DNA from: Ardenticatenia bacterium
GTDB taxonomy: Bacteria; Chloroflexota; Anaerolineae; Aggregatilineales; JALXEW01
Reading direction: 5' to 3'
Assembly (NCBI GenBank): GCA_027069285.1
Contig: JALXEW010000261.1
Location: forward strand, 1 to 39,624
DNA: 39,624 nucleotides
The notes below the pieces were generated by a model, which searched no databases, had not been told where the DNA came from, and saw only the letters and a list, made by a program, of their open reading frames with translations. Made by a program: the position numbers and the translations under genes. Positions 13,127-31,909 of the stretch are shown here, in pieces (the stretch's first letter is position 1; each line of letters opens with the position of its first letter).

Positions 13127-13144
13127 TAGATGTGTGCCTCGGTT

Positions 13145-13181
13145 GGGAGCCGGAACCCATATACACCCGGTTCCCGCTCCC
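13145..13181 (+). terminator. second intercistronic stem-loop (13 bp, one mismatch)
   Basis: GGGAGCCGGAACC ... GGTTCCCGCTCCC with an 11-nt loop, 43 nt before the livH-like ATG. Confidence 0.4.
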
Positions 13182-13223
13182 TCAGCCATTTGCAACCTAT
13201 CCTCACCGTAGCGGGAAGAAAAC

Positions 13224-14144: not shown

Positions 14145-14150
14145 TACGCC

Positions 14151-15902: not shown

Positions 15903-15911
15903 GGCTATGAA

Positions 15912-16844
15912 ATGGCCCAGATTGAAGCCACACTAACCGGAGAAAAACAAAAAGACAACGAGGCCGTCCCATTGCTGGAAGTCACATCGCTCAGCAAAGA
16001 CTTCGGCGGCCTGCGGGCCGTGGATAACCTGAGTTTCACCCTGAGACGCGGCGAAATCCTCAGCATCATCGGCCCAAACGGCGCCGGGAAAACCACCGTC
16101 TTCAACATGGTCACCTGCATATACCCGGCGACCACCGGCACGGTGATCTTCGACGGCGAAATGATCGTACAATCGCCCGAAAGCGCGTTCGACCGATGGC
16201 TACGCGCGGTGATGACGGTGTTGGCCGGGTGGATACCGTGGCTACCCCACCAGATACTGAAGTCACGCGGCCTCATACCCATACTCCGCCCACACGATAT
16301 AGTCGAACGGGGCATCGCCCGCACCTTCCAGACCATCCGCCTCTTCCCGCGACTGACGGTGCTGGAAAACGTGATGGCCGGACAACATCACAAAGGCCAC
16401 GCCGGAGCAGTTGGCGCACTACTCCGCCTCCCGGCAGAGAGGGCAGAAGAGAAACAATTCGTGGAAAACTCCATGAAATACCTGCAAATGGTCGGCCTGG
16501 ACGATAGGGCCGACGAACTGGCCCGAAACCTGCCATATGGCGACCAACGCCGCCTGGAGATCGCGCGTGCACTGGCGACCGAACCGAAGCTACTGGTGCT
16601 GGACGAACCGGCGGCAGGCCTCAACGAGGCCGAGAGCCTGGAGCTGATGGACACGATCCGGAACCTGCGGGATAGCGGCATCACCATCCTGCTCATCGAA
16701 CACGATATGAAAGTCGTGATGAACATCTCCGATCGGGTGATCGTGCTCGATAACGGGGTCAAAATAGCCGAAGGCACACCCGCCGAGGTGCAAAACGACC
16801 CCAAAGTGATCGCCGCCTACCTGGGCGAGGAGGAGGCGGAATAA
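15912..16844 (+). CDS. livG: branched-chain amino acid ABC transporter ATP-binding protein, LivG type, with internal insertion
   Basis: Walker A GPNGAGKTT, Q-loop RTFQTIRLF, signature LPYGDQRRLEIARAL, Walker B LLVLDEPAAGL and H-loop LLIEHDM are all present. Confidence 0.9.
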   Translation: MAQIEATLTGEKQKDNEAVPLLEVTSLSKDFGGLRAVDNLSFTLRRGEILSIIGPNGAGKTTVFNMVTCIYPATTGTVIFDGEMIVQSPESAFDRWLRAVMTVLAGWIPWLPHQILKSRGLIPILRPHDIVERGIARTFQTIRLFPRLTVLENVMAGQHHKGHAGAVGALLRLPAERAEEKQFVENSMKYLQMVGLDDRADELARNLPYGDQRRLEIARALATEPKLLVLDEPAAGLNEAESLELMDTIRNLRDSGITILLIEHDMKVVMNISDRVIVLDNGVKIAEGTPAEVQNDPKVIAAYLGEEEAE

Positions 16845-16845
16845 C

Positions 16846-17562
16846 ATGGCGCTCCTGGAGCTACAAGATATACACACATACTACGGCCACGTCCACGCCC
16901 TCAAGGGCATCTCGCTACAAGTGGAAGAAGGGCAAATAGTCGCCCTGATCGGCGCAAATGGCGCCGGCAAAACCACCACACTCCGCACGATCTCCGGGCT
17001 GCTGCGCCCCCGCTCCGGCTCGATCATCTTCGACGGCAACCCGATCCACAGAATGCCCGCGCACAGGATCGTACACCTGGGACTGACCCACGCCCCCGAA
17101 GGCCGCCAGGTATTCCCGACCCTGACCGTCCAGGAAAACCTGAACATGGGCGCCTACACACTCGGCAACGACAAAGAAGCCATCGAGGAAAACCGCCGCC
17201 GCGTCTTCAAACTCTTCCCACGGCTGGAGGAACGTAAAAATCAGCTCGGCGGCACACTTTCGGGCGGCGAGCAGCAAATGCTCTCCATCGGCAGAGCACT
17301 CATGTCCAGGCCCAAACTGCTGATGCTGGACGAGCCATCACTGGGCCTAGCGCCGATGCTGGTCAAGGCCATCTTCGAAACCATCCGCGAGATCAACCGA
17401 CAGGGCGTGACCGTATTGCTGGTCGAGCAAAACGCCCGCGCCGCGCTCAAACTGGCCGACTACGCATACGTGCTCGAAACCGGCACGATAGCGCTCGAAG
17501 GCCCGGCGGGCGAGCTACTGCGCGACGAGCGCGTGCGCAAAGCGTACCTGGGCGAAACATGA
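16846..17562 (+). CDS. livF: branched-chain amino acid ABC transporter ATP-binding protein, LivF type
   Basis: LLELQDIHTYYGHVHALKGISL, Walker A GANGAGKTTT, signature LSGGEQQMLSIGRAL and Walker B LLMLDEPSLGL. 238 aa. Confidence 0.92.
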   Translation: MALLELQDIHTYYGHVHALKGISLQVEEGQIVALIGANGAGKTTTLRTISGLLRPRSGSIIFDGNPIHRMPAHRIVHLGLTHAPEGRQVFPTLTVQENLNMGAYTLGNDKEAIEENRRRVFKLFPRLEERKNQLGGTLSGGEQQMLSIGRALMSRPKLLMLDEPSLGLAPMLVKAIFETIREINRQGVTVLLVEQNARAALKLADYAYVLETGTIALEGPAGELLRDERVRKAYLGET

Positions 17563-18479
17563 ACCGCACATTACGTGGCTACGCCCTGGTATTACTGGCG
17601 GCCACGCTGTGGGGTTCACTAGGCCTCTTCTACAACCGGCTGACGGATATATACGGCCTGAGGCCGTTGACGGTGGCCTTCCTGCGTGCCCTATTTACGG
17701 CCTCGATCCTGGTCGCCGTGCGCGTACCGGGGCCGATCCTGACCGCGCACCGCCGGGACATCCCCACGGTGAGCCGCCGGGACATGGTTGGATTTGCCCT
17801 ATTCGGGCTTTTCGGGGTGGCGGCCTTCTACTACGTATACGCGCACGCCATCGATCGGATCGGCATGGGGATTGCCGCAGTCCTGATGTACACCGCCCCG
17901 GCCTGGGTAACGATCATCTCCGCGCTCTTCATGGACGAGCCGCTGACCCCACGCAAAGTGATCGCCCTACTACTTGCCATCGGCGGCGTAGCACTGGTCT
18001 CCCGCGTATACCATCTCGGCTCACTCCGGCTCGACGTGATAGGCACACTAATGGCACTCGCCTCCGGGCTGACTTACGGGCTTTACACCATCTTCAGCAA
18101 GCTGGCGCTGAAACGCTACCAGGTCTGGACGGTAATGACGTACTCGATAGGATTCGGGATGCTCTTCCTGCTCCCGATCCAATCGCCGGATGAGCTTAAG
18201 CGTGCCTTTTCGGATGCCGGGATAATGGCATGGTCGGTAGGCGCCTCGCTGGTGCCGACCTTGATGTCCGGCCTCTGCTTCAACCTGGGGCTGCGTGACA
18301 TCCCGGCGGCCAACGCCAGCATAATCGCCACATTCGAAACCGTGGTAGCCTCGGCCCTGGGCGTGCTATTCCTGGGCGAGACGTGGGAGCAGCCCCAGGT
18401 ACTGGGCGGCGCACTGATCCTCTCAGCCGTCGTAATACTCAGCAGCGCCAGAACTGACGATCAGCACCCGCCGTCCTGA
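17559..18479 (+). CDS. EamA/DMT-family transporter
   Basis: About ten hydrophobic helices arranged as two EamA-like halves (LLAATLWGSLGLFY..., ...GGALILSAVVILS). The ATG overlaps the livF stop (ATGA at 17559-17562). Confidence 0.78.
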   Translation: MNRTLRGYALVLLAATLWGSLGLFYNRLTDIYGLRPLTVAFLRALFTASILVAVRVPGPILTAHRRDIPTVSRRDMVGFALFGLFGVAAFYYVYAHAIDRIGMGIAAVLMYTAPAWVTIISALFMDEPLTPRKVIALLLAIGGVALVSRVYHLGSLRLDVIGTLMALASGLTYGLYTIFSKLALKRYQVWTVMTYSIGFGMLFLLPIQSPDELKRAFSDAGIMAWSVGASLVPTLMSGLCFNLGLRDIPAANASIIATFETVVASALGVLFLGETWEQPQVLGGALILSAVVILSSARTDDQHPPS

Positions 18480-19153
18480 TCCGATCCGAGGGCCGGGTCA
18501 AACGTCGGAGTCGGCCCCGGCGTGGGCGTGGGATTCTCGGCCAGATATTCGGTATAGGCCACATACCCATCGCGCAAGTTGAACACGCGCATATAACCCA
18601 GAAGGCGCAATATAACCAGCGCGTGGGCGGCACGCCTCCCGGAATGGCAATAAACCAGGATCGGGGAGCTGGGATTGGACGGCAACTCGTCCAGGCGGCG
18701 CGTCAACTGGCGCAACGGGATATTGACGGCACCCTCGATATGTCCCTCGGCGAACTCATCCGGCTCCCGCACGTCCACGATGGCATAGTGCACCCCGTTG
18801 ACCTGATCGGCCAGGAACTGCTCGACCGTGATACGATAGCGGCCCTCCGGCAGCGAGCGCAGATAATCATCCGCCGCCATCGCCACCGCCGAGCGTCGCA
18901 CCCACTCCCACGAAGTAGGGTCATCCGGCGCAGCCCTGACCGCATCCTGGGCGGCATCAAAAGCCGCCTCGAAATCACCATCGGCATATGCAGCCTCGGC
19001 CATCTCGACGTATTGGCGGTGATTGGCGGCATTGCCAGGCGCGGCAGTTGGAGTCGGCGTCCCGCTCCGGCACCCGATCATCACAACGGCCCCCAGCATC
19101 AAGATGGCCGCCAGGAACACCCGTGGCCGGCAAATCGTGAGCGACAAAGACAT
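18461..19153 (-). CDS. exported single-domain rhodanese (sulfurtransferase) lipoprotein with helical N-terminal region
   Basis: Signal peptide with lipobox (AVVMIGC). Rhodanese active-site loop ILVYCHSGRRAAHA (C-x4-R). AAGGAG Shine-Dalgarno precedes the ATG. The 3' end overlaps the convergent EamA gene by 19 nt. Confidence 0.8.
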   Translation of the reverse strand: MSLSLTICRPRVFLAAILMLGAVVMIGCRSGTPTPTAAPGNAANHRQYVEMAEAAYADGDFEAAFDAAQDAVRAAPDDPTSWEWVRRSAVAMAADDYLRSLPEGRYRITVEQFLADQVNGVHYAIVDVREPDEFAEGHIEGAVNIPLRQLTRRLDELPSNPSSPILVYCHSGRRAAHALVILRLLGYMRVFNLRDGYVAYTEYLAENPTPTPGPTPTFDPALGSDQDGGC

Positions 19154-19272: not shown

Positions 19273-22200
19273 TCACACCTTCTCGACTCTCACCATCGTA
19301 TCGTAGAAGCTGGCGCTGCCGCCGATAGGGTCGGTGAGGCACGAGGCAAATACCGCCGGATCCTCGCGCATCACCACATTCGCACAAACCCCGGTAGCCC
19401 GTCTGGCGTCACCCGGCAGCACCTCACCGTTGATAGTCATATCCCTGGCGCCATAAGCCCAGTGGCCATAGTGCCAGCTGAACGCTATCGTGCCCGGACG
19501 GATACCCTCGATGATCTTGACCTTGCCGATCACATCCATATCGTCCTCGCCCAGGCGCCAAACACCATTCTGGTTAGTAGCCGAGGTGATCCGCACCAGG
19601 TCCCCGTCGCTCAGGCCGCGAGACTCGGCATCCTGGCGGTTCATATAGACGTAGTTTTCGGGCATCACCGAGTGCTGTATCCAGTAGCAGCCGGGCGTGC
19701 GGCTCTGGCCGCCGGTGATTTCCTTATAAGTGATCAGCGCCAGATCATAGTCCGAGTCCTCTATCGGGTTACCGGCTGCATCGCGCACCACATCATACAT
19801 CGGCAACCCGGAGAAGTGCTCACCGGTGAAACTATGGCGGCCCTTATAGACATTTTCCACGTAGATCGAGAACATCTTGCCCCACGGGTGGCCGACATAC
19901 CGACCGTTATGGCGCTTATCGAAATTCTCGAACCGACCGCCACGGTTCAGGACGGTGACCATGCGGCGGAACAACTCATCATCGTTGCCGATCGAACGGC
20001 GCCACCGTTCCTCATCGAAGACAGCGCTTGACAGATGGCTGCGGGCGGCGCGGAATATCTCCATCTCGCGCTCATCGGCGGGCGGCACCGCATCGGAGCC
20101 ATCCTCCTTATCGCCAAAAGCTATATTAGCCACGGCCTTCAGGTACCAATCCTCGGCGGCATTGAAATCGAAGCCCTCACCCAGCCCATCGGGGCCATAT
20201 CCGGGCAGGCCGAGCCTTTCGGCGATCGCCAGCATGATGGCCTCCATGCCCAGCGGCTGCTCCTGGCCGAAGACGGTCACCGTACCCGGCAGCGGGTCGA
20301 CTATCGGCTGGCGCACCTTACTCACCTTCGTCATAACGGCGGGGGTGATATGTGGGGTGCCCCAGCGCTCCCAGATCGCGGTATCGGGGAACAGGAAATC
20401 GGCGTACATCGAAGTCTCGCCGATCACGATGTCGCAGGCGAAGAAGAGCGGGATCTTATCCATATCGCGCAAGATGTCGATGGACGGATTACCCGCAGGC
20501 CCGGCGTAGACCGGAGTACCTTTGTGGAGGAATAGTGCCTTGATCGGATACGGATACTGGTCGCCGGCGCTGGGGATGATCTCCTGGTAGACGTTGTTGG
20601 TATAGGGGTAGAAAGGTCGCCTGGCCGGATAACCATCCCGCTGGAAGAGCAAAGTCTTCTCATAAGCGACCTTCTCACGGGTCAGTATGATGCCATAGGA
20701 GCCGAGCTTACCTGGGTGCGTGCTGCTGGACTTCAACTCGAACGGCCCGTGGGCCTTATCGCCAAATTCGTGCCAGTGGCCGCCACCGACCGTCAGGCCG
20801 CCGGTCCAATCGCAGTTGCCGATCAGGATGTTGAGGCAGATGATGGCCTGGGCGTTATAGTAGCCGTTAGTATGCTGAACCGGGCCGCGATATAACTCGG
20901 CGGCGGCGCGTTTACCGTGGCCGGTGAACTCGCGGGCCACCTCCACGATCCGCCGCACCGGGATGCCGCATATCTCCGACCATTCCTCAAGCGTGCGCTC
21001 CTGGGCAACCTCCTTGAGCAGCTGCAAGGCGCTCTTATAGCGCACACGTCCCTCGCGGCCCTCGACTAGCAGGTCGCCCTCGACCGGGTTCTCCTCATCG
21101 TACGGATCGAAGGCCACCAGCTCACCATCCCGCGAGACCACGAACCAGTGATCCGGATCGGCGTCCTCCGGCACCTCCAGGTCGACGTCGGAGGCGCGGA
21201 GCAAGGTAGTCGGGTTACCGTCCTCGTCCAACTTGACCAGATGGGTGGCATTCGACCAGGTTTTCTCGCCATCGGCCAGCGCTGCGGCCTTATTGGCATT
21301 GGCCAGGTACCCGGCGTCGTAGCGCTCATTCTCGATGATCCAGCTTATCATCGCCAGGGCCAGCGCCGCATCGGTACCGGGCTTCACCGGCAGCCACCAC
21401 TTAGCCTTTGCTGCGGTCTTACTCAAGCGCGGGTCTACCACGGCGATCTCCAGATCTGCCTGAGTTATGCCGTAGGTGACCAACTCCGACATCGGGGTGG
21501 GGCCGAAGTTAGCCTCAAACGCGCCGGTGCCGAAGAAGATGACGAACTCAGCGTTGGCAATATCCGGCTTCATATGGGTCTTGCCGCCGCTCCACTTGCC
21601 ATCGCTATACTGATTCGTCATCTGCTGGTAGGCGATATGGTGGGATTGCTCGCAGATAGTAGTATGCTCCCACCAGTTGACCGAGCCGAACGCATCCTTG
21701 AGCCAGCGCTTGGCGAACTCCTTACGTCCGTGCTCGATTCTCCCGGCCATGAAGGCGAACTGATTGTTACGCGGCCCCAGGTCCGGGAGATCGGGGTCTA
21801 TCAGCAGATCGAGATGATCGGCATGTGCCCGCTGGAACTCCTCCAGGGTCATCTCGCCGCTGACCACCTTAGCCGAGTCCTCCTTGAGCGACGCCATCAA
21901 ATCAGGATCGCGCACCGCCCAGATCTCGGCCAGGCCTGGTGTTGAAGTCCCATCGGCGAAGGTAGCCCCGTTGACGATCTCGTCAATCGCCTGATCGAAG
22001 TCTATAACCTCCCACTGCCCGCTGCCGCGCGGACCTGCCCGCTTGAGCACGGCAGTGATGCGATAGGGGTCGTACTCACTTTGCACGCCCGACTGCCCCT
22101 TGGGGCACAGCTTGGCATCAACCGGCGCGGCCTCATCCGGCGGGGTCTCATAATTTAGATGCGGCAACATATTCATCGGGCTATAGGGGTTGCCGTCAAT

Positions 22201-22437
22201 TTTCACCATCACCCCGTCGTAGACTTTGGCCTTGATAGTGCAGGAAGTGTGACACTGGAGGCAGGCGCTATAGATGATATGCTCAGGCTTATTAAGCGGA
22301 TACTCCCCATCCTGGCCGTTGGCACGCTGAGCAGAATCGGCCAGGACACTGAACACGCGATTCAACTTGGAAGCGAGCGCCGCACATCCCCCTGCTACCG
22401 CCGAAATCTTCAAGAAGTCACGTCGTGTGATCTCCAT
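19273..22437 (-). CDS. Tat-exported molybdopterin (Mo-bisPGD) oxidoreductase catalytic subunit, TtrA/SrdA/PsrA-like
   Basis: Twin-arginine signal MEITRRDFLKISAVAGG. N-terminal [4Fe-4S] motif CLQCHTSC...(x48)...C (KLCPKGQ). Candidate Mo-ligand segment HTTICEQSHH. Blocks I recall as TtrA-like: GNPYSPM, KTWSNATHLV, AEDWYLKAVANIAFG, LNRGGRFENFD. 1054 aa, close to the roughly 1000-aa TtrA class. Confidence 0.8.
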   Translation of the reverse strand: MEITRRDFLKISAVAGGCAALASKLNRVFSVLADSAQRANGQDGEYPLNKPEHIIYSACLQCHTSCTIKAKVYDGVMVKIDGNPYSPMNMLPHLNYETPPDEAAPVDAKLCPKGQSGVQSEYDPYRITAVLKRAGPRGSGQWEVIDFDQAIDEIVNGATFADGTSTPGLAEIWAVRDPDLMASLKEDSAKVVSGEMTLEEFQRAHADHLDLLIDPDLPDLGPRNNQFAFMAGRIEHGRKEFAKRWLKDAFGSVNWWEHTTICEQSHHIAYQQMTNQYSDGKWSGGKTHMKPDIANAEFVIFFGTGAFEANFGPTPMSELVTYGITQADLEIAVVDPRLSKTAAKAKWWLPVKPGTDAALALAMISWIIENERYDAGYLANANKAAALADGEKTWSNATHLVKLDEDGNPTTLLRASDVDLEVPEDADPDHWFVVSRDGELVAFDPYDEENPVEGDLLVEGREGRVRYKSALQLLKEVAQERTLEEWSEICGIPVRRIVEVAREFTGHGKRAAAELYRGPVQHTNGYYNAQAIICLNILIGNCDWTGGLTVGGGHWHEFGDKAHGPFELKSSSTHPGKLGSYGIILTREKVAYEKTLLFQRDGYPARRPFYPYTNNVYQEIIPSAGDQYPYPIKALFLHKGTPVYAGPAGNPSIDILRDMDKIPLFFACDIVIGETSMYADFLFPDTAIWERWGTPHITPAVMTKVSKVRQPIVDPLPGTVTVFGQEQPLGMEAIMLAIAERLGLPGYGPDGLGEGFDFNAAEDWYLKAVANIAFGDKEDGSDAVPPADEREMEIFRAARSHLSSAVFDEERWRRSIGNDDELFRRMVTVLNRGGRFENFDKRHNGRYVGHPWGKMFSIYVENVYKGRHSFTGEHFSGLPMYDVVRDAAGNPIEDSDYDLALITYKEITGGQSRTPGCYWIQHSVMPENYVYMNRQDAESRGLSDGDLVRITSATNQNGVWRLGEDDMDVIGKVKIIEGIRPGTIAFSWHYGHWAYGARDMTINGEVLPGDARRATGVCANVVMREDPAVFASCLTDPIGGSASFYDTMVRVEKV

Positions 22438-22440
22438 CGC

Positions 22441-23568
22441 TTACGCTCCTTCAGGCTGATTCAGGGCCAGCCGATCCCACAGGAACGAATAAACCGCCAG
22501 TCCCAGGGCGATCACACCCACCGCCACCAGCCACTCCGTCAGGCTTGGGACGTACACAGTGCTCAGGCGCGGCGAGTAATACGCCTCGGTGATCCCCTCC
22601 AGCTCCGGCACCGAGAGGACCGGGATGAGCAGATTCGAGCGTGCCGCCACGAACCCGATCATCAGCGCCACGCTCCCCAGACCCACGATCACCCGGTTGC
22701 CACGGAAGAAGACCAGTGCCACCAGCGGGATCACCATCCCCACCAGCACCTGCAGCCCCCAGAAGAGCCATGAATCGGGGCCGTACATCGCCAGGTTGAG
22801 CGCATCCTTGACCGCCGGGGCGCCGCCGTAGAGCATAGTCTCGATGGCAGCGAACTCCATCAGGGCCTCGAAGATCAACAGGCCCAGGGTGATCCCGGTC
22901 ACCCAGCGGAGCATCTCATCTCGCCCCTCGGCCTTCCACAAAAAGGCCAGGATGAAAGTCAGGGCAGCGCCCGCAGTCACCAATCCGGCCACCAGAAAGC
23001 GGATGGGGAACAGGCCGGTATTCCAGGCCGGGCGGGAGCCAAGCACGCCCATCAGCGCCCCCTCGGTACCGGCAAACGCCACTGCCAGCACCAAAGCCAC
23101 AGCTCCCAGCCACTTAGCTGCCGTCGCATTGCCGCCGTAGTCGAGCACGAGCTGTACCACGACGATCACGAAAAACCCGGCGTACACCCATGACATACGG
23201 CCCATCAGCGAAGTCGAGCTTGGGCGGAAGAACAACTCCGGGAACCGCTCCATATGGCCCAGATCGAACCACACCAGCAGCAAGCCCGCTGCCAGGGCGA
23301 TCAGGGAGCCGACCGCCGTCACCCGGCGCAGCGGCTTAAACACCTCGATCTCGAAGACGGATCCCAGTGCCGAGAAGACATACAATCCGGCGGCAAGCCC
23401 GCCCAGATAAGTATAGAGCACGATCCACAAGCCCCATGGGATCAGGCTACCGTGATTTATCACCTCGTGTCCCATAGTCAGGCGCTGGACGAGGCCTACC
23501 AGGCCGGCCACAATGAGCACCGCCAGCACGACCCAGTACACGATTCGCATTGGCGTCGCGTTAGCCAT
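22441..23568 (-). CDS. NrfD/PsrC-family integral membrane quinol-interacting subunit
   Basis: A polytopic hydrophobic protein located between the Fe-S and catalytic subunit genes. The ATG at 23566-23568 is preceded by GGGAGG, which overlaps the upstream TAA (TAAGGGAGGTTGGTCATG). The track's TTG start at 23574 is two codons longer. Confidence 0.8.
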   Translation of the reverse strand: MANATPMRIVYWVVLAVLIVAGLVGLVQRLTMGHEVINHGSLIPWGLWIVLYTYLGGLAAGLYVFSALGSVFEIEVFKPLRRVTAVGSLIALAAGLLLVWFDLGHMERFPELFFRPSSTSLMGRMSWVYAGFFVIVVVQLVLDYGGNATAAKWLGAVALVLAVAFAGTEGALMGVLGSRPAWNTGLFPIRFLVAGLVTAGAALTFILAFLWKAEGRDEMLRWVTGITLGLLIFEALMEFAAIETMLYGGAPAVKDALNLAMYGPDSWLFWGLQVLVGMVIPLVALVFFRGNRVIVGLGSVALMIGFVAARSNLLIPVLSVPELEGITEAYYSPRLSTVYVPSLTEWLVAVGVIALGLAVYSFLWDRLALNQPEGA

Positions 23569-23580
23569 GACCAACCTCCC

Positions 23581-24306
23581 TTACGTGAGGTAATAAACCG
23601 ACGGGTTGGTGCCCAGTTCTTCCTTGAGCCGGAAGGCCTGGCGCCGTCCCAGCAGTTCGGATACGAGACTATCGGGGTCATTGAGGTCGCCGAAGTACCG
23701 TGCCCGTCCGATGCAATCGGTGATACAGGCCGGCAACAACCCCTCGTTGAGCCTGTGCAGGCAGAAGTGGCATTTGCGCACATTACCTATCGGCGAGCCA
23801 CCTGCAGAGCGGTTATGCTCATGGCCGTACTCGAACTCGATATTCTCGTACTCCTGGGGGTTAGGGGTATTGCCGGTATACGTCTCGCCGAAGTCGAACA
23901 TGCGGGCGCCGTACGGACAGGCCGCGATGCAATAGCGGCAGCCGATGCACACCTCATAGTCCACCACCACTATGCCGTCCTCCCGCTTATACGTGGCGCC
24001 CACCGGGCAGACATCCACGCACGGCGGATTCTGGCAGTGCATACACGGCCTGGGCACGAACACCCTACGCACATTAGGGTACTTGCCGACCTCATCCTGC
24101 AAGACGATGTTATAAGCGACCTCCGGTGGAGTCTTATTCTCAGATTTGCACGCCACGGTACAGGCATCGCACCCGACGCACTTGGTCAGGTCTATGACCA
24201 TGACCCAATGTCGCTCCTCCACCGGCTTTTGGAGAGCGCGTTGGATGTCGTCCATCATCCTCAAGATCGCGTTCTCCATCTCCAGCACACGTGGAATATC
24301 TGGCAT
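23581..24306 (-). CDS. four-cluster 4Fe-4S ferredoxin-type electron-transfer subunit (TtrB/PsrB/NrfC-like)
   Basis: Four Cys groups are present: [37 protein letters not shown] and CHFCLHRL...PACITDC. GAGAGGTG Shine-Dalgarno precedes the ATG at 24304-24306. Confidence 0.9.
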
Positions 24307-24445
24307 GGCTCACCTCTCTTGGAGATATGCGAAAGCCGGCTGTCACAGTGATCCGAACGCCAACCCGGCACGGCAGTCCCATTCCAGGCCGCGCCGTTGA
24401 GCGCCCACTACATGTTCAAGTTATCACAAACACGCGGGGATTTTT

Positions 24446-24475
24446 ATCGGGCAAAACCTGATAGTTTTCGCCGAT
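24446..24475. promoter_or_regulatory. 12-6-12 imperfect inverted repeat between the response-regulator gene and the molybdoenzyme operon (operator candidate)
   Basis: ATCGGGCAAAAC-ctgata-GTTTTCGCCGAT, with 10 of 12 arm positions complementary. It lies 28-57 nt past the regulator stop and about 140-170 nt upstream of the Fe-S subunit ATG. Confidence 0.35.
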
Positions 24476-24502
24476 ATGTAGTGATTTTCTTGACAAATGA
24501 GG

Positions 24503-25153
24503 TCATTCCGAAAGGAGTCCCCGTGCGACCGCATACCGCACCAGCTGAACCCGGCTGGTGAGGCCCAACTTATGCATCGCGCGGCTACGGTAAGTATCCA
24601 CGGTATTGGCGCTCAGGTGGAGCTTCTCCGCGATCTCCTGGCTGGTATACCCCCAGGCGACAAGAGTGATCACCTCCTGTTCTCGCTCGCTCAACCTCTC
24701 CCAGGGGTCAGCTCCGGTGCTATGCGGGATTATATCCCCCAGCAGCGAGGGCACCATCTCCCGATCCACATATATCTGCCCGCGATACACCTGGCGTATT
24801 GCCGCGACCACCTCCTCGCCATCGGCCTGCTTCAGCACATAACCGGCCCCGCCGCCTGCCAGCACCTGTTTAGCGTACTCCTCATCGCAGTGCATAGTCA
24901 AGACCAGGACACGGGTTTTATCGGAAAACTCCCTCATCCTGGCCAAGACGGCCAGTCCGCCGAGATTCGGCATAGAAATATCGAGCAGCAACACATCTGG
25001 CCGGAGTTCCCTCACCTTTTGCAAGGCCTCACGTCCGTCGGACGCCTCGCCGATCACGGTTATATCGGAATATCGCTCCAAAAGCAGCCTCAGACCGGCG
25101 CGGAAGACCGCGTGATCGTCCGCGATCAGGACGCGGATTGTCTCCCGTTCCAT
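24503..25153 (-). CDS. NarL/FixJ-family response regulator (REC + LuxR-type HTH)
   Basis: IRVLIADDHAVFRAGL...DVLLLDISMPNLGG (receiver Asp) and LSEREQEVITLVAWGYTSQEIAEKLHLSANTVDTYRSRAMHKLGL (LuxR HTH). GGGAGGTGG Shine-Dalgarno lies inside the 3' end of the upstream kinase gene. Confidence 0.92.
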   Translation of the reverse strand: MERETIRVLIADDHAVFRAGLRLLLERYSDITVIGEASDGREALQKVRELRPDVLLLDISMPNLGGLAVLARMREFSDKTRVLVLTMHCDEEYAKQVLAGGGAGYVLKQADGEEVVAAIRQVYRGQIYVDREMVPSLLGDIIPHSTGADPWERLSEREQEVITLVAWGYTSQEIAEKLHLSANTVDTYRSRAMHKLGLTSRVQLVRYAVARGLLSE

Positions 25154-26592
25154 CCCTCACCACCTCCCTGGGCACGGATCGGCACGCGCACGAACACCGT
25201 AGTGCCCCTTCCCGGAGCGGATTCCACCACCACCTGTCCGCCGACGAGATTTGCCCGTTCCATCATACCCTGCAGACCGAGATTCCGGGCCTTATCGACC
25301 GCATTGGGATCGAAGCCGCGCCCGCCATCCTCGACAATGGCGACACACTCATCCCCTCGTCGCTCAAGCACCACATCGACGCGACCCGCCCCAGAGTGCC
25401 TGGCGGCGTTGGTCAGCGCCTCCTGGACTATCCTATAGACGGCAGTTTCCACGGTGGGGGCCAGCCTCACCCCGTCCATCCCAAAAGTCTCGAACGAGAC
25501 CTGCACCTCGAACGTGCGGCCCCAATCGTAAAGGTACCTGCGCACGGCGGCCACCAGTCCCAGATCATCAAGTACCGGAGGGCGCAACTCATGGGCCAGC
25601 ATCCTCACCCCTTCCAGCGTCTGGCCGACCAGATCGCGCAACTCATCCAGCCTGGCGATATTAGCACAATCATTGCAAATCGCCATCGCGTTGGAAAGCC
25701 CCATCTTGATGGCCGTGAGCGCCTGACCGGTATCATCGTGCAACTCGCGGGAGATACGTCTACGTTCCTCCTCCTGCGCAGTGATGATCTTATCTATCAA
25801 CAAAGCCCGCAGCCTCTCGCGCTCCTCACGCTCATGGGCCGCCCTTTCCAGCTCGACCGTCATACGGTTGAAAGTGCGCGTCAGAGCGCCGATCTCATCA
25901 TCGGCAAACGGCACTATCCTCGCCCCAAAATCGCCGGCGGCCACCGACTTTGCAGCACCGGCCAGCCTGCGGATGGGATCGGTTATCATCCAGGTCAGCC
26001 CGGCGGCGATCAAAATGCCCAGCAGGGCCACCAGGGCCGTAGTAAGCGCAAACTGCCTGGTCGTATCCTCAACAGTCGCCTTCATAGCCGCCTCACCCAG
26101 CCCCAACCTCACCGTATAGCCATCCCCGACCGGAACCGGCACCGCCACATCCCAGATCACACCCTCGTTAGTCCGCAGCCTACGCATACGGTACTGTTCC
26201 GACCTATCCACGGAGTTGGCATCCACCAGCCCGCGAGGGAAACCATCACCGAAAGTGTGGGCCAGGGGAGAGCCATCAGAGCCTAATACAAAGGCATACC
26301 TGACGGTATCGCCGTTATTCATGGTGGTATCGCGCAGCAGATTATGCAGCCCGTAGAGGTCGTCCAGCAGTATATAATCGGTTGCGCGTGCCGCCAGGTC
26401 GCGTGCCAGCGCGACCCCACGCCTTTGCAGCTCGATCCGCAGGGAACTTTCCTGGATCGCGCGCATCTGGAGGGTCAGGCTGATCCCAAGCAACAATATC
26501 AGCCCCAACGCCATACCCAGTATCTTTATCCTGACGCTTACCGAGATCAGTTGACGCCACAGCGATGCCACCAGATGCCGCAGCCCCATCAT
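25126..26592 (-). CDS. membrane sensor histidine kinase (2 TM, ~150-aa external domain, HAMP, HisKA_3, HATPase_c)
   Basis: HAMP DPIRRLAGAAKSVAAGDFGARI...DEIGALTRTFNRM. HisKA_3 H-box ISRELHDDTGQALTAI. N-box EALTNAARHSGA. G-boxes VEDGGRGFD and GLQGMMERA. Confidence 0.85.
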   Translation of the reverse strand: MMGLRHLVASLWRQLISVSVRIKILGMALGLILLLGISLTLQMRAIQESSLRIELQRRGVALARDLAARATDYILLDDLYGLHNLLRDTTMNNGDTVRYAFVLGSDGSPLAHTFGDGFPRGLVDANSVDRSEQYRMRRLRTNEGVIWDVAVPVPVGDGYTVRLGLGEAAMKATVEDTTRQFALTTALVALLGILIAAGLTWMITDPIRRLAGAAKSVAAGDFGARIVPFADDEIGALTRTFNRMTVELERAAHEREERERLRALLIDKIITAQEEERRRISRELHDDTGQALTAIKMGLSNAMAICNDCANIARLDELRDLVGQTLEGVRMLAHELRPPVLDDLGLVAAVRRYLYDWGRTFEVQVSFETFGMDGVRLAPTVETAVYRIVQEALTNAARHSGAGRVDVVLERRGDECVAIVEDGGRGFDPNAVDKARNLGLQGMMERANLVGGQVVVESAPGRGTTVFVRVPIRAQGGGEGWNGRQSAS

Positions 26593-27506
26593 GGCGATAC
26601 CAGTGCCTCACGGTGTATCAGCCTGACCCCATCGTATGCCGAATCGTCCACCATCACAAACCTATCCACGCCTATAGCCGCCAGCGCCTCCTGGCCCTCC
26701 GGCGTCTCGTGCATCGTCAGGAATATCCGGCGCAGCTCCTCGATCCAGCTCTCGGTCGCGTTCGGCCCCACGACAACCGGCGGAATGCCAAACGGCGGCG
26801 ATTCGTGTATGACCCGCACTCTATCCCCCAACTCCGGATCGCGTTCCAGCGCGAACCGGTACACCAGACTATCAACAGCCGCCCCATCCGCGATCCTATC
26901 GGCGACCGCACGGATCGCGTTATCGTGCGAATACGTATAGAAAACGTGGCCGAAGAAAGATTGCGGGTCATATCCCAGCTGCGTCAGCAAATATATCGGA
27001 TAGGCGCGGCCTGTAGTCGAGATGGGGTCGGTAAAGACGAAAGTAGCGCCCTGCAGGTCCTCGATCGATCGGGCATCGCTATCCGATGGCACGATCAAAA
27101 GCGAGCGGTACACCGTCTCGCCGTTGACCTCCGGCGCCACCAGCAATCGCATCCCGAACGCATCGTGGCCGTACACATACCCGCTGGTGCACACAAACGC
27201 CAAATCCACCTGGCCAGCCTCCAGCAGGTTATTGATCTCCATATAAGTGCGCCGCTGAACCAGCTCCACCGGGCGACCGAGGCGCTCGCCCAAATACCCC
27301 AACAGCAACCGGTAACTTTCGGCGGTGCCCTCAGGGGAGATCACGGCGGCGACCGCCACCCTCAGCGGCAGATCATCCATCTCCACCCGCTCTATAACAG
27401 TGGGGTCTACATCGTTGAAGTCTATATAAGGCGCATCACCTACGGCAGGGACGCAACCAACCACAAGGGGCAACGTCAAAAGGATTGCGATGACGAAATA
27501 CCTCAT
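26589..27506 (-). CDS. PhnD-like (Phosphonate-bd family) extracytoplasmic solute-binding lipoprotein, no cognate ABC permease or ATPase nearby
   Basis: Lipobox LPLVVGC. Pattern typical of the PhnD/Phosphonate-bd family: YRLLLGYLGERLGRPVELVQRRTYMEINNLLEAGQVDLAF...YRSLLIVPSDS..SIEDLQG..FVFTDPISTTG...SHDNAIRAVADRIADGAAVDS. 4-nt overlaps with both flanking kinase genes. Confidence 0.78.
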   Translation of the reverse strand: MRYFVIAILLTLPLVVGCVPAVGDAPYIDFNDVDPTVIERVEMDDLPLRVAVAAVISPEGTAESYRLLLGYLGERLGRPVELVQRRTYMEINNLLEAGQVDLAFVCTSGYVYGHDAFGMRLLVAPEVNGETVYRSLLIVPSDSDARSIEDLQGATFVFTDPISTTGRAYPIYLLTQLGYDPQSFFGHVFYTYSHDNAIRAVADRIADGAAVDSLVYRFALERDPELGDRVRVIHESPPFGIPPVVVGPNATESWIEELRRIFLTMHETPEGQEALAAIGVDRFVMVDDSAYDGVRLIHREALVSP

Positions 27507-29902
27507 CTTGCGAACCTGGCTTCCAGCTTCTGCAGCTCCTCGACGGCGTAACGACCGGTATCGATCTCAGGCTCGCCCACCTCGCCCACAGGCGGGGCGG
27601 TCAAAGGCAAAGTGAAATACACCGTAGTGCCGTAGCCGGCACGGCTCTCCAGCCGGATCGAGCCGCCATGTGCCTCGATCACCTTACGGGCGATATAAAG
27701 CCCCTGGCCGGTGCCGGGAACGTCCAAGACCTTACCATCAGGCGTCCTGGGCACCCCACGGAAGAAACGTCGCCACACCAGCGGCAAATCCTCCGTGGAT
27801 ATGCCCACCCCGGTATCCGAGACCATAAACGAGGCGGAATTTCGCTTACTGCGTTCGAGCCTCAACATGATCTCGCCGCCCGGCAGCGAATATTTGACCG
27901 AATTATCGATCAGATTCCCAATGGCCCACCGCAGCCTGCGTTCATCCCCCAGCACATACATATCGCGATCCAGTATCTGTACCTGGATGCTCAATCCCGC
28001 CTGCTCTGCGGCCTCCTTCCAATCCCGCACCAGGTCCCACATCAGATTCTCGGTCGAGATCGGGCGCCTGCCGATGCGGAGCGAATCGGCATCCAGGCTC
28101 GCCAGGTCGCGGAACTCCAGGATCAGGCGGGCCAGCTCGATGGCATTGCGATGCACCCCCTCCACAAACGCCCTCAAAGCCGACGATTGACCGTTGGCGG
28201 CCCTCACAAGCTCCATACCCTGCTCATGCAACTCGGTCAATGGCGCCTGCAACTCACGGGCCATCCGGGCCAGCAACTGTTCCCGTGCCTGCTCATCCAT
28301 AGCCTGTCGGGTCACATCGCGCAACACGATCACCGTGCCGATTCGCTCTCGCGGCCTGCCAGATTCTTCCACCATCACGGCGGCGGCCTGAGCGCTCAGC
28401 ACCCGCTCATCGACGACCACCCGCGTCTCATCGCCGGTCAGATATATCCCCGGCGCCATCGCCGGTCCGAGCGCATCCGTCACCTGGGCGGTCAGCCGAT
28501 TGAGGTCGCTATGGCGCACCACCCGCCTGGAGCCGAGCAACTCGCGTGCCGCATCATTTATCAGCACCACCCGCCCATCCATATCCAACAGCACCAGCCC
28601 ATCGGGGATCGAGCGGAGCACCGCGCTGAGCCTGGCCACCTCGCTCCGTTGGGCATAAAGGCTCAGCCGCATCAAGTGAGCACGCATCTCCCACTGATCG
28701 GCCATACGGTCGATCGCGTGGCCCAACGCCCCCACCTCATCGATCGGCTGCATACCGGTTCGGCGGCCCAAATCCCCGGCACCCAGGGCCTCGGCAGTCT
28801 CGCGAATACGTTCGAGCCTGCGGGTGAAAACCGCCGTGATCGCGACGAACCCGGCGACCATCAAAGCGGCCACCCCGGCGGCAAAAGTCAGACTGATCAC
28901 ACGGCGGCTGGTCTCGGTGGCGAAGAAAATGTTATTCGGCACAAAAGTCGCCAATACCCCAAGCGTCTCGCCCCGGACGACGAACGGCATATAAGCCACC
29001 TGGTAAGGGACGCCGCCGAGCGTGAAGGCACGTATCGGGACAGAATCGGTGGCGCTCAACGCACCCTCAAAAGTCTGCTCATCCACCTCCAGTGCCGAGA
29101 ACCCCTCCTCCGGCTCCGGCAACGTGGTGGCCAGGAGCCGTCCATCCGGCCCGTACAGCGCCAGCTCGGTGAGGGCGCCACTTCGCAACTCCCACAGCAG
29201 CTGGCTAAGGCGCGACCCGACCATGATCACGCCGAGCATCTCACCTTCCCAAACCACCGGGGCGGCGGTATAGAGCGCATAACCGCGCGTGGTGCGCACC
29301 AGGCCTGCGGGCCTGACGTCCAGATCGGGATCATCGCCTATGAAAGCCGCCACCGGCAGCAAAGTGCTCAGATCGGTACCGGTGCTGATGGCGAAATCAA
29401 CGCCCCCCTCCTGATCCGTTCTTTGCAGCCCCAGTATCTCGATCCCGTCAGAATCCGTCACTATCACGCTATCCACGCCCTCATTGGCCGCTATCGGCTC
29501 GATAAGGCGCTGAAGGGAGTCTATCCCCCGGCTGCGGACGGCCTGTGGGATACCATTCGTAAAGGCGATCAGGCGCAATACGGCCAGATGCTCGGCCTCG
29601 AAATCCCCCAAACGCATGACGGCCCCGTGGCAAGCCTCGAGCAGCTGTTGGGTCTGTGCCTCTTTGACCCCTTCTGCCACGGCACCCGTGACCCAATACG
29701 TGCCGACGGTGGCGAAAGCGATCAAAACCGCCGCCAGCGGCATCAGCACCCATACCCGTGCCGACACATACCTCGTTCCGGCCCCACCTCCCCGGCGCCC
29801 TTTACCGCGCGACGGTGGATGCTCGGCCCTCTGTATCGCCGGATACTCCCCATACGATCCCGGCTGGCCACGATGCTCTGGTGCGGATTCACGTCCGCTC
29901 AC
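27503..29902 (-). CDS. membrane sensor kinase-like protein (large external domain, HAMP, PAS, HisKA-like helix lacking the conserved His, intact HATPase_c)
   Basis: TM helices at about aa 50-75 and 335-360 flank a ~265-aa external domain. HAMP RRLERIRETAEALGAGDLGRR...DEVGALGHAIDRM. PAS IPDGLVLLDMDGRVVLINDAARELLG. N-box IGNLIDNSVKYS, G1 VSDTGVGI, G2 GTGQGLYIARKV. The GTG start shares one nt with the upstream TAG, and the start is uncertain. Confidence 0.8.
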   Translation of the reverse strand: MSGRESAPEHRGQPGSYGEYPAIQRAEHPPSRGKGRRGGGAGTRYVSARVWVLMPLAAVLIAFATVGTYWVTGAVAEGVKEAQTQQLLEACHGAVMRLGDFEAEHLAVLRLIAFTNGIPQAVRSRGIDSLQRLIEPIAANEGVDSVIVTDSDGIEILGLQRTDQEGGVDFAISTGTDLSTLLPVAAFIGDDPDLDVRPAGLVRTTRGYALYTAAPVVWEGEMLGVIMVGSRLSQLLWELRSGALTELALYGPDGRLLATTLPEPEEGFSALEVDEQTFEGALSATDSVPIRAFTLGGVPYQVAYMPFVVRGETLGVLATFVPNNIFFATETSRRVISLTFAAGVAALMVAGFVAITAVFTRRLERIRETAEALGAGDLGRRTGMQPIDEVGALGHAIDRMADQWEMRAHLMRLSLYAQRSEVARLSAVLRSIPDGLVLLDMDGRVVLINDAARELLGSRRVVRHSDLNRLTAQVTDALGPAMAPGIYLTGDETRVVVDERVLSAQAAAVMVEESGRPRERIGTVIVLRDVTRQAMDEQAREQLLARMARELQAPLTELHEQGMELVRAANGQSSALRAFVEGVHRNAIELARLILEFRDLASLDADSLRIGRRPISTENLMWDLVRDWKEAAEQAGLSIQVQILDRDMYVLGDERRLRWAIGNLIDNSVKYSLPGGEIMLRLERSKRNSASFMVSDTGVGISTEDLPLVWRRFFRGVPRTPDGKVLDVPGTGQGLYIARKVIEAHGGSIRLESRAGYGTTVYFTLPLTAPPVGEVGEPEIDTGRYAVEELQKLEARFAR

Positions 29903-31758
29903 TACCCCTCACTCCCTCCGGCGCCCCCCGCGCCGGATACCCCTCTCCCGTCGCGGCTACCGCTCTCCTCAGGGCCTTCGTCCTCCTCGGAGATCGGCAG
30001 CAGCACAGTGATCTTAGTGCCCTTGCCCGGCTCACTTTCGATATACGTGGTACCTTCCACCAACTCGGCCCGCTCGCGCATATTAATCATGCCCAGGCTG
30101 CCGCGATGCTCATACCCAGAATCCACCTCCTTGACGTCAAAGCCAACCCCATCATCCTCCACCTCCAGGACGACGAACTCATCCTGGCGGTACAGCCGCA
30201 CCCAGATATGATCGGCCTGTGCGTGCTTGCGCGCGTTATTGACCGCCTCCTCGACGATATAGAACACCACGCCCTGTGCAGTAGGGCTGAGCAACCTTTC
30301 CACGCCCGGCCTGACATGTACGACAACGTTCTGACCATGAGTCTCGCGCATCTTCTGGGCCAACTGCTCCAATGCCGCCGTAAGGCCCTGGGTTTCCAGC
30401 ACAAGCGGCCTGAGTGTGAACAGCATATGGCGTATTTCCTTAGTGGTGCGCCGTGCCAGCTCCTCGACCTTCCAAAGCTCCTCCGGCACCTGCTCCGGAT
30501 GCCGTTCCAAGAGGCGTCTGATGAAATTGATACGCATCGCCACGGCGGAGATGCCCTGAGTGGGTCCATCGTGCAAATCGCGGGCGAGCTTCTTCCTGGC
30601 ATCCTCCTCCACCTCGACGATACGCTCCTTCTCCTCCTTCAGGTTCTGATATAGCACCGCGTTTTGGAGCGCGATGGTGGCCTGACTGCCGATAGCGGTC
30701 AGCAACTCCACATGCTCGCCCGAAAACGCATTTGGCTTCTCGCTGCCGAACACCAAAAGCCCGTAGTTATCATACCCGGCCCGCAACGGGATACAGAGCA
30801 CCGACTTAACGCCCTGAAAGGCCATAAAATAGCGCAACTCCGGGTCCTTACGCGGGTCGCTGCCGATGACAGGTTCCGCCTGGCGGAGGGCCATGCCCAT
30901 TATACCCCTCTTGCCCGGCACCTTGATGGCCATATCACGCCGGGTCAGCCGCCTGGCGGTTGCAACGTACAACTCATTATCCCTGAACAGCAACACCATA
31001 CCAACCAGTCGCGCGTCACGCCTGAGCTCGCGCAGCCCCAGCACGCCCACATCCAAAGCGGCATCCAGCACCTTCTTGTAGTCGAGCGTGGCGCTCAGCG
31101 TGCTGGCCATCTCATAGATAGCACGGGTGCGCTCACGGGCGGCGCGGAGCCTTCTGGCTTCCACCTCGCGGCTTCGCTCCACCATCCTCTTAAGCACGCC
31201 CTGAGTATAAGTAGTGAGCAGTCCAGATAGCGAGGCGGCGAAAAGCAAGAAGAGTATCCCGGCGACCACAGACGCCATATCATCGGCGCCATTGGGAACG
31301 GTGAGGAAGTAAATGAACACATCGGCCAGGCTGACGGCGAAACTCACGCCCACGCCCACCGGCCATCCGAATCGAACCGAGGCAGTGACCACCGGCAACA
31401 GCCCCGCGCCGACCATGACCATAGGGTCTGCCCCGGCGGCCCAGAACGTGGCAGCCGATAGCACCCCATCCAGCATCAACGTGATGCCCCCGAACCATGC
31501 CTGCGGCGCCCCAAGCCACAAGACCATCGCCACCAGCAAGTTATACACAGCGCCGAGGAATATCACGATGAGCAACCCGGATGGCAGAGGAGTTCCCAGG
31601 GCTTCGGATGAGGAATCCGGGGCCATCAGCGCAAGCACCAACGCGCCCAGCAGGAAAAGCCAGCGCAGGGCAAAGATAATCCGATCTATTTGAGACGAGG
31701 CTGCCTGGCGATTGCCCACGCTAAACGCCATCCACCCTAAACAAAACGCCGTGGTCAC
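29902..31758 (-). CDS. polytopic-membrane sensor histidine kinase (about 6 TM, GAF, HisKA_3, HATPase_c)
   Basis: The N-terminal ~190 aa are hydrophobic helices. GAF-like region (VGMVLLFRDNELYVATARRL...LCIPLRAGYDNYGLLVFGS). HisKA_3 H-box LARDLHDGPTQGISAV. N-box VEEAVNNARKHAQA. G-boxes VEDDGVGFD and GSLGMINMRERA. The start is either the GTG at 31758 or the ATG at 31731. Confidence 0.82.
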   Translation of the reverse strand: MTTAFCLGWMAFSVGNRQAASSQIDRIIFALRWLFLLGALVLALMAPDSSSEALGTPLPSGLLIVIFLGAVYNLLVAMVLWLGAPQAWFGGITLMLDGVLSAATFWAAGADPMVMVGAGLLPVVTASVRFGWPVGVGVSFAVSLADVFIYFLTVPNGADDMASVVAGILFLLFAASLSGLLTTYTQGVLKRMVERSREVEARRLRAARERTRAIYEMASTLSATLDYKKVLDAALDVGVLGLRELRRDARLVGMVLLFRDNELYVATARRLTRRDMAIKVPGKRGIMGMALRQAEPVIGSDPRKDPELRYFMAFQGVKSVLCIPLRAGYDNYGLLVFGSEKPNAFSGEHVELLTAIGSQATIALQNAVLYQNLKEEKERIVEVEEDARKKLARDLHDGPTQGISAVAMRINFIRRLLERHPEQVPEELWKVEELARRTTKEIRHMLFTLRPLVLETQGLTAALEQLAQKMRETHGQNVVVHVRPGVERLLSPTAQGVVFYIVEEAVNNARKHAQADHIWVRLYRQDEFVVLEVEDDGVGFDVKEVDSGYEHRGSLGMINMRERAELVEGTTYIESEPGKGTKITVLLPISEEDEGPEESGSRDGRGVSGAGGAGGSEG

Positions 31759-31789
31759 CGGTTCGCCGGCGCCACGGCATTTACTATAG

Positions 31790-31863
<74 letters not shown>

Positions 31864-31880: not shown

Positions 31881-31909
31881 ATTATAGCATCGATGCCCGT
31901 GGGCGCCAA
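31881..31909 (-). promoter_or_regulatory. sigma70-type promoter for tRNA-Val (TTGGCG-17 nt-TATAAT)
   Basis: On the minus strand, TTGGCG (31904-31909) and TATAAT (31881-31886) are separated by a 17-nt spacer. The -10 ends 17 nt before the mature tRNA 5' end. Confidence 0.55.

Follow-up and report, generated by a model that had tools for sequence, protein, structure and literature searches.

The binding proteins AioX, ArxX and ArrX form a subfamily whose role is in sensing rather than transport, and the gene for each of them is grouped with genes for a kinase (S) and a regulator (R) next to an operon for a molybdoenzyme (Badilla et al. 2018, PMC5908839). ArrX binds arsenate (dissociation constant 1 µM) and phosphate (150 µM) and does not bind tetrathionate, thiosulfate or selenate; the regulator ArrR, as found in Firmicutes and Chrysiogenetes, lacks an AAA+ domain and carries a FixJ-like helix-turn-helix (HTH) (PMC5908839). 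In Melioribacter roseus, a set designated 'ArrTSR' lies directly upstream of a ttr locus, and transcription of ttrA goes up with arsenate (PMC5492636). Here we describe a related arrangement in a 39,624-nucleotide (nt) stretch of DNA, hereafter the window, from an Ardenticatenia bacterium (GTDB Chloroflexota; Anaerolineae; Aggregatilineales; JALXEW01; assembly GCA_027069285.1, contig JALXEW010000261.1). Five minus-strand open reading frames (ORFs) between positions 24503 and 31758 encode, from 5′ to 3′, a kinase with a GAF domain (HK1), a 799-amino-acid (aa) kinase-like protein (gene B), a lipoprotein with a PhnD fold (X), a second kinase (S) and a response regulator (R). A previous sequence-only reading of this DNA took the five genes as a single module in which three kinases converge on R. 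Our analysis indicates that the region is probably instead a composite of three units, namely, an X-S-R sensor of the ArrXSR/AioXSR type beside a reductase operon, the orphan kinase HK1, and the gene B pseudokinase.

The five ORFs run head to tail with successive overlaps of 1, 4, 4, and 28 nt, and their number, order and overlap lengths were borne out. The overlaps of gene B with X, of X with S, and of S with R are robust, whereas the 1-nt overlap of HK1 with gene B rests on the choice of start codon. In Pfam searches, the 305-aa product of X (26589 to 27506) fell in the Phosphonate-bd family (E = 1.4e-65), in agreement with the family that had been proposed for it, and a scan of its hydropathy and sequence identified a lipoprotein signal that terminates in the lipobox VVGC. 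S (25126 to 26592) is composed of a transmembrane (TM) segment, an sCache_3_2 domain, a second TM segment, and HAMP, HisKA_3 and HATPase_c domains. R (24503 to 25153) matched Response_reg and GerE, corresponding to a receiver (REC) and a LuxR domain of the NarL/FixJ type, and gave no Pfam match to the Sigma54_activat domain. HK1 (nominally 29902 to 31758, more likely 29902 to 31731) is a polytopic membrane protein with GAF, HisKA_3 and HATPase_c domains, and gene B (27503 to 29902) consists of a TM segment, dCache_3, a second TM segment, HAMP, PAS, a degenerate DHp domain and HATPase_c. By hydropathy scan, gene B and S each have two TM segments placed around an external domain. The domains listed in the sequence-only reading were thus borne out; gene B gave no Pfam HisKA match.

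We compared X with proteins of solved structure, and its best match was ArrX of Chrysiogenes arsenatis (6x6b; E = 1e-65, 225 bits, 45% identity over 250 residues). The AioX structure was matched at E = 1e-35 and PhnD at 1e-6, the transport-type structures PhnD, PtxB, and HtxB ranging from 1e-6 to 1e-14. With the NCBIfam models, X scored 122.8 against the PhnD equivalog TIGR03431, whose cutoff is 261.1, and 118.8 against the broad subfamily TIGR01098, whose cutoff is 112.05. The AioX pocket residues Tyr88, Cys106, Tyr131, Ser161, Ser163, His192, and Asp210 correspond to Y, C, Y, S, T, H, and D in X, so that six of the seven match and the one change is from Ser163 to Thr. This Thr is shared with the X protein of a Desulfobacterota locus (L019 in our numbering of the loci compared), which is encoded beside an ArrA-like enzyme. 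A simple neighbor-joining tree that carries no support values grouped the Ttr-associated X proteins from Chloroflexota and Bacillota into one clade beside ArrX and far from AioX. Genes of the phnC/phnE type were found neither in the window nor in the nine related cassette loci described below. Taken together, these comparisons support the assignment of X as a sensory binding protein of the ArrX/AioX subfamily and not a transport protein. The earlier label 'PhnD-type' holds for the fold of X, but the protein is far closer to the sensors ArrX and AioX than to transport PhnD, and this ranking, together with the synteny of X with S and R, upholds the proposal that the free lipoprotein is a sensory partner. 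It had also been stated that X has no ABC permease or ATPase partner anywhere in the window. A complete branched-chain-amino-acid (LIV)-type ABC importer is in fact present at 11800 to 17562; it is the only complete one in the window and has its own Peripla_BP_6 binding protein, and the statement stands insofar as there is no partner of the PhnC/PhnE type.

Searches of protein databases returned 3,334 proteins that match X at E < 1e-40. Among the best 120 of these, entries with a source name bore the label 'phosphonate ABC transporter substrate-binding protein' or a comparable one, and the sources named were Chloroflexota, largely Anaerolineae together with other members of the phylum. At the loci that we examined, no ABC genes lie near the X homologs, which are sensor partners of the ArrX-like kind. 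We also considered the SrdBCA selenate reductase system, on account of its B-C-A gene order and of a weak match of X to TIGR04553 (74 bits; cutoff, 250).

The genes X, S and R are separated by a 196-nt control region (24307 to 24502) from four genes that also lie on the minus strand. The first encodes a TtrB-like 4Fe-4S subunit (23581 to 24306; Pfam Fer4_11 and NCBIfam DsrO, TtrB, and ArrB-like matches), the second a TtrC-like membrane anchor of the NrfD type (22441 to 23574; Pfam NrfD, E = 9.8e-31), and the third a 1054-aa molybdopterin catalytic subunit with a Tat signal (19273 to 22437; Pfam TAT_signal, Molybdop_Fe4S4, Molybdopterin, and Molydop_binding). The last gene of the cassette encodes an exported, single-domain rhodanese lipoprotein (18461 to 19153; Pfam Rhodanese, E = 5.8e-21) with the lipobox MIGC and the active-site loop CHSGRR. 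For the catalytic subunit, the best NCBIfam model was TtrA, with 522 bits against a cutoff of 1750, while ArrA gave 121 bits against 1600; by these scores, the subunit is TtrA-like and not a TtrA equivalog.

This cassette is conserved. X-S-R was found beside TtrB/C/A-like genes in a Chloroflexaceae metagenome-assembled genome (MAG; L001) and in three Bacillota MAGs (L002, L004, and L010), and the order X-S-R-FeS-NrfD-TtrA-like, in which FeS denotes the 4Fe-4S subunit, recurred in the Chloroflexota loci L150 to L154, giving nine related loci in all. The closest X homologs (66 to 68% identity) are encoded in the same cassette, with a molybdoenzyme of 1054 to 1055 aa followed by a rhodanese gene, an FmdE gene or both, and the rhodanese gene 3′ of the TtrA-like gene is kept in L150 and L152. 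Upstream of X, these closest relatives have unrelated genes and a 123- to 173-nt spacer of their own. Neither HK1 nor gene B was present in any of the nine related loci. The conservation of the X-S-R-FeS-NrfD-TtrA cassette in relatives supports the earlier proposal that the module controls the adjacent molybdoenzyme operon, which it very probably does. An FmdE-domain gene follows the cassette in L150 (19361 to 19993), L152 (13315 to 13953), and L153 (15360 to 16025); in L153, it is succeeded in turn by a MoaA-like radical-SAM gene. The window has no FmdE gene, and what follows the rhodanese gene there is a gene for an EamA transporter, oppositely oriented.

In most of the loci surveyed, the gene immediately after X encodes an sCache-like/HAMP membrane protein, whose output is a HisKA_3 kinase, a HisKA kinase or a sigma54 activator. 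Because this sCache/HAMP module tracks X across phyla despite the differing outputs, we predict that X signals through the product of the next gene, S in the case of the window. In Methanoperedens (L005, 7590 to 14606; also L003, L006 to L009, and L012 to L016), an ArrX-like gene precedes genes for an sCache-HAMP-PAS-GAF-HisKA kinase and a REC-only protein; this set adjoins genes for a KaiC-like ATPase, a Roadblock/LC7 protein and DUF2150, with no adjacent molybdoenzyme gene. In Desulfobacterota (L018, 10770 to 13022; L019, 10764 to 13043; L020, 10908 to 13187), the ArrX-like gene is followed by one for an sCache-like/HAMP-sigma54 AAA+-HTH_8 protein, an activator that combines sensor and output in a single polypeptide with no kinase step, and L019 carries an adjacent pair of ArrA-like and ArrB-like genes, the former scoring 1308 bits where an equivalog would need 1600. 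In a Coriobacteriia MAG (L021, 6883 to 10918), the ArrX-like gene overlaps the end of a gene for a CHASE4-HAMP-PAS-GGDEF-EAL protein. This overlap with a GGDEF-EAL gene suggests that the ArrX-type family of binding proteins also feeds cyclic di-GMP signaling.

The locus shares with ArrXSR (also ArrTSR), known from Chrysiogenes arsenatis and Firmicutes and sister to AioXSR and ArxXSR, a free PhnD-fold sensor with the pocket Y, C, Y, S, S/T, H, D and the placement of X, S and R together beside an operon for a molybdoenzyme of the DMSO reductase family. R also agrees with the published description of ArrR from Firmicutes and Chrysiogenetes, both being non-AAA+ regulators with a FixJ/LuxR-type HTH. 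The locus differs in that the enzyme is TtrA-like, encoded in B-C-A order, and is not ArrAB, Arx or Aio, and in that X, with its 45% identity to ArrX, is a lipoprotein. The ArrX of C. arsenatis, as a protein of a diderm, is expected to be soluble and periplasmic. The Melioribacter roseus ArrTSR resembles the locus, on the basis of its description, in that a PhnD-like protein, a kinase and a regulator are paired with a Ttr-like molybdoenzyme, whereas that organism belongs to the phylum Ignavibacteriae and has an adjacent ars resistance locus, of which the window has no counterpart. The sequence-only reading knew of no characterized case of such an architecture. Systems of this kind have, however, been described, namely, the AioXSR, ArxXSR and ArrXSR three-component systems (PMC5908839), and ArrTSR beside ttr has been noted in Melioribacter (PMC5492636).

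The same reading had compared the locus with fused sensors and suggested that it is a split version of them. TtrS/TtrR of Salmonella and ThsS/ThsR sense tetrathionate and thiosulfate, respectively, and have the PhnD-fold binding domain fused to the kinase; the Shewanella TtrS/R and ThsS/R systems are reportedly the subject of work by Daeffler and coworkers from 2017. As in those systems, a PhnD-fold ligand module, a LuxR-type regulator and an operon of the ttrBCA type with B-C-A order come together here. In contrast, the Phosphonate-bd domain of the window is a separate lipoprotein, and S has an sCache_3_2 domain of its own. The best NCBIfam matches of R were MctR, UvrY, and NarL, and R scored 67.7 bits with the TtrR model, the cutoff of which is 290; since the TtrA-like subunit also falls far below its cutoff, the B-C-A order is the only one of the regulator and reductase tests that agrees with TtrSR. 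In TorT/TorS and LuxP/LuxQ, the ligand is bound by a periplasmic protein distinct from the membrane kinase, and the kinase reads the occupancy of that protein through its external domain; TorS and LuxQ are hybrid kinases that work through phosphorelays. The logic of X and S would be alike, but the binding-protein folds and the kinase classes are unrelated.

From the domain content and these homologies, we propose the following route. X, tethered to the outer face of the membrane, would bind an oxyanion, and liganded X would then dock onto the sCache domain of S. The HAMP domain would pass on the signal, upon which S would autophosphorylate on the HisKA_3 histidine and transfer the phosphate to the REC domain of R. 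Phosphorylated R is predicted to bind conserved boxes in the 196-nt spacer and to activate the operon of the FeS, NrfD, TtrA-like, and rhodanese genes, whose product would be a quinol-linked respiratory reductase that is exported by the Tat route and acts on the oxyanion sensed by X.

We aligned the spacer (24307 to 24502) with those of L150, L152, and L153 and found several conserved elements. A box of ∼20 nt, TGTCAAGAAAATCACTACA (24477 to 24495), is nearly invariant in the four loci. A central block is conserved as well and in the window forms an inverted repeat (24445 to 24476) that contains TCAGGTTTTGCCCGA (24447 to 24461), and the −10-like sequence GATAACTTGA (24416 to 24425) and a Shine-Dalgarno sequence (24311 to 24318) are also among the conserved elements. 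A putative ArrR site, tcaggtttttccctga, has been published (PMC5908839); TCAGGTTTTGCCCGA resembles it, and similar repeats are present in the Bacillota loci. Of two candidate R sites, we rate the TCAGG-N5-CCCGA palindrome of the window as the weak one, because the closest relatives do not keep the palindrome as such, and the invariant TGTCAAGAAAATCAC box as the better. The leader of the window operon (∼24327 to 24400) has ∼55 extra G+C-rich nt that are absent in L150, L152, and L153. The three Bacillota loci, for their part, share a nearly identical leader of ∼100 nt (TTTCTCCGAGCTGC...GCCTGCCCGTATTTGGCGAAGGAGAAATGAGCA) located just upstream of the TtrB-like gene (L002, ∼4760 to 4870; L004, ∼360 to 470; L010, ∼2960 to 3055), which in two of the three is preceded by a GTCCG-N8-CGGAC inverted repeat. 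This leader matched no Rfam family at the gathering score, i.e., no known riboswitch at that threshold; across the window, L001, L002, L004, and L010, the only Rfam hits at gathering thresholds were two tRNAs.

As for the ligand of X, we give arsenate an even chance. It is favored because X is ArrX-like, ArrX binds arsenate, TtrA homologs have been linked to As(V), and the Melioribacter ArrTSR lies beside ttr. TtrA homologs of Anaeromyxobacter and Geobacter were reported to be arsenate induced and to have As(V) reductase activity, the ttrA of Pyrobaculum is induced by As(V), and Chloroflexota ttrA transcripts were detected in arsenic-rich paddy soil (PMC11462812, PMC5492636). The main alternative, to which we give a somewhat lower probability, is tetrathionate, thiosulfate or another sulfur oxyanion; in its favor we count the B-C-A gene order and the lack of ars genes in the window. 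There is a small chance that the ligand is something else. The sequence-only reading had arrived at tetrathionate or thiosulfate by analogy with TtrS and ThsS; with an ArrX-like sensor, arsenate is at least as likely.

The first of the five genes is most readily placed outside this sensor. The nominal GTG start of HK1 (31758) falls within a terminator-like hairpin (31748 to 31778) located 3′ of the minus-strand gene for tRNA-Val(CAC) (31789 to 31863; ARAGORN and Rfam). Together with its T-run (31739 to 31747), this element spans 31739 to 31778 on the minus strand; the hairpin folds with −36.4 kcal/mol (z = −5.5), and none of 200 shuffled sequences folded as well. Because the GTG lies in the hairpin, the ATG at 31731, just past the T-run (∼8 nt), is the more likely start. 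Upstream of tRNA-Val is a promoter-like site (31881 to 31909), TTGGCG-17-TATAAT with an upstream TG; apart from this tRNA promoter, the promoter and terminator scans of the window gave nothing above the shuffled expectation. Since the only strong promoter-like site lies upstream of tRNA-Val, the expression of HK1 may depend on read-through of the terminator.

Orthologs of HK1 (n = 23; 49 to 69% identity) were found in Chloroflexota MAGs (L024 to L046). As in the window, tRNA-Val(CAC) lies immediately upstream of the ortholog in 16 of the 17 loci with enough flanking sequence, and the arrangement of tRNA-Val(CAC), strong hairpin with T-run, and HK1 ATG is kept in these 16. The genes downstream are mostly on the opposite strand, and no PhnD-like gene, pseudokinase or NarL-type regulator is encoded near the HK1 orthologs in the 23 loci. 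A sensitive search for receiver domains found one in the flanks of a single locus, where it adjoins a different kinase. The DHp domain of HK1 is 79 to 88% identical across all orthologs and is unlike that of S at most positions after the His. By these comparisons, HK1 is an independent orphan kinase, conserved across Anaerolineae and outside the conserved sensor cassette. Because its DHp domain is so highly conserved without the cassette, HK1 probably serves a conserved regulator encoded elsewhere.

Gene B, in turn, lacks the residue that a histidine kinase phosphorylates. In an alignment, its H box reads ARELQAPL, where the canonical SHELRTPL belongs to the forms SHE(L/F)(R/K)TPL or GHELRTPL, and the column of the phospho-acceptor His is occupied by Arg549 (codon 28256 to 28258). 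Among 5.8 billion proteins, there were three full-length orthologs (40 to 47% identity) and no closer relatives; these three also have no Pfam HisKA call, whereas every more distant match has one. Arg in the window, Asp, Glu, and Gln in the three orthologs, and Asp and Glu in two further members from a genome collection (L070 and L071) fill the His column, so that the His is absent in all six. The ATP-binding boxes of gene B are intact (N box, DNSVKY; G1, DTGVGI; G2, GTGQGL). As the phospho-acceptor His is missing, we consider gene B a conserved pseudokinase that cannot play a canonical phosphodonor role. As its start, the GTG at 29902 has a single in-frame competitor, an equally possible GTG at codon 46, and comparison with the orthologs favors neither. 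A search of solved structures with the external domain returned nothing meaningful (best E, 0.3).

His-less pseudo-histidine kinases are known, such as DivL of Caulobacter, as are modulators of other kinases such as RetS. Gene B and DivL are alike in having a DHp-CA architecture without the phospho-acceptor His, but the replacing residue is variable here (R, D, E, Q) and is Tyr in DivL, and the likeness is drawn from architecture. The window gene, L022, L023, L047, L070, and L071 make up a small Chloroflexota family of dCache_3-HAMP-PAS-DHp-CA proteins that are His-less, keep the ATP boxes and have no conserved neighbor. The genes beside the orthologs differ: two loci have Peptidase_M23, one has Mut7-C together with a TctA-like gene, and another has TetR and YceI. 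No X, S, or R was found beside them in the loci examined, and the overlap of the gene B stop codon with the ATG of X (ATGA) occurs in this contig only. Peptidase_M23 was considered as a conserved neighbor and discarded, being absent at L047 and L070.

Several observations weigh against a composite region built around an ArrXSR-type, possibly arsenate-responsive sensor. The terminator scan revealed no terminator-like site that clearly parts the five genes. X has no promoter region of its own here, its ATG overlapping the stop codon of gene B where the relatives have a spacer, and a lineage-specific functional link of X-S-R to gene B is possible. The palindrome noted above is not shared with the closest relatives. 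As to the ligand, the residues of the pocket do not determine binding specificity, which leaves arsenate uncertain (PMC5908839), the enzyme is Ttr-like rather than ArrA-like, and the exported rhodanese fits sulfur chemistry.

Among the explanations that compete with a composite of three units, the one that survives best is that gene B was recruited in this organism only as an accessory co-sensor, which would bind X via its dCache domain, modulate S or set the expression of X-S-R. We regard this as improbable but not negligible. The robust ATGA overlap and the absence of the X promoter spacer speak for it and make it probable that X-S-R is cotranscribed with gene B (and possibly also with HK1), and the intact ATP-binding boxes and the large external dCache_3 domain would suit such a role. 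However, the arrangement is confined to one contig, and the five other gene B orthologs stand alone amid varied neighbors. The DHp domain of gene B is HisKA-like and that of S is HisKA_3, so that heterodimers would be unlikely, and the place after X is taken by an sCache/HAMP partner in most loci surveyed across phyla. We favor a neutral juxtaposition of gene B and X. A more specific proposal, to which we give marginally less credence, is that in this Anaerolineae lineage gene B was captured into the operon, in translational coupling with X, and would supply a further input that involves no phosphorylation. Through competition for X or modulation of S, it would tune the response that X-S-R gives for a reductase that is Ttr-like and possibly respires arsenate; HK1 might add a third layer by read-through transcription.

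The convergence proposed by the sequence-only reading, in which all three membrane kinases feed phosphate into R as a multi-input, split version of TtrS/ThsS, now appears very unlikely. Its appeal lay in five codirectional genes whose junctions overlap or nearly do so and among which no clear terminator was found, and in the HisKA_3 domains of both HK1 and S, a class that pairs with NarL/LuxR regulators. It also lay in a count of three transmitters to one receiver, which our analysis revises to two competent transmitters and one His-less pseudokinase; R is indeed the sole receiver domain among the window ORFs scanned. This count is itself weak evidence for convergence, because a fourth kinase of the window (GAF-PAS-PAS-HisKA-HATPase_c, 6705 to 9230), which has a 4-nt overlap with the end of a ClpB-like AAA+ ATPase gene (9227 to 11671), also has no adjacent response regulator; an excess of kinases over regulators is thus normal in this genome. 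Against convergence stand the missing phospho-acceptor His in all six members of the gene B family and the persistence of HK1 with tRNA-Val away from the cassette, where its DHp domain is near-identical and unlike that of S and where the one receiver domain in 23 flanks sits beside another kinase. The kinase-kinase-PhnD-kinase-regulator order is likewise not co-conserved, as HK1 and gene B are absent from the nine related cassettes, including the closest relatives, and are unlinked elsewhere. Weakest of all, with hardly any probability left to it, is the view that X is an ordinary phosphonate/phosphite transport protein of the PhnD/PtxB type with ABC partners outside the window and a coincidental position, for although the strong Phosphonate-bd match, the TIGR01098 score just above its cutoff and the annotation of most database homologs agree with it, X reaches 122.8 of the 261 needed for the PhnD equivalog, matches PhnD, PtxB, and HtxB at 1e-6 to 1e-14 versus 1e-65 for ArrX, has no PhnC/PhnE in the window or the nine related loci, and is strictly syntenic with S and R.

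The composite reading replaces the apparent novelty of three kinases on one regulator with an assignment, that of an Anaerolineae system of the ArrXSR type whose partner enzyme is a Ttr-like reductase. It also shows that codirectional, overlapping kinase genes need not be one signaling module. Of the X homologs that carry the label of phosphonate-transport proteins, at least the cassette-linked ones examined here are more likely kinase-wired sensors. In Chloroflexota and Bacillota, the ArrX-like sensor is consistently found with a Ttr-like reductase and not with ArrA, and this pairing, as independent evidence from genomes, supports the emerging view that homologs of TtrA may serve as respiratory arsenate reductases (PMC11462812, PMC5492636).

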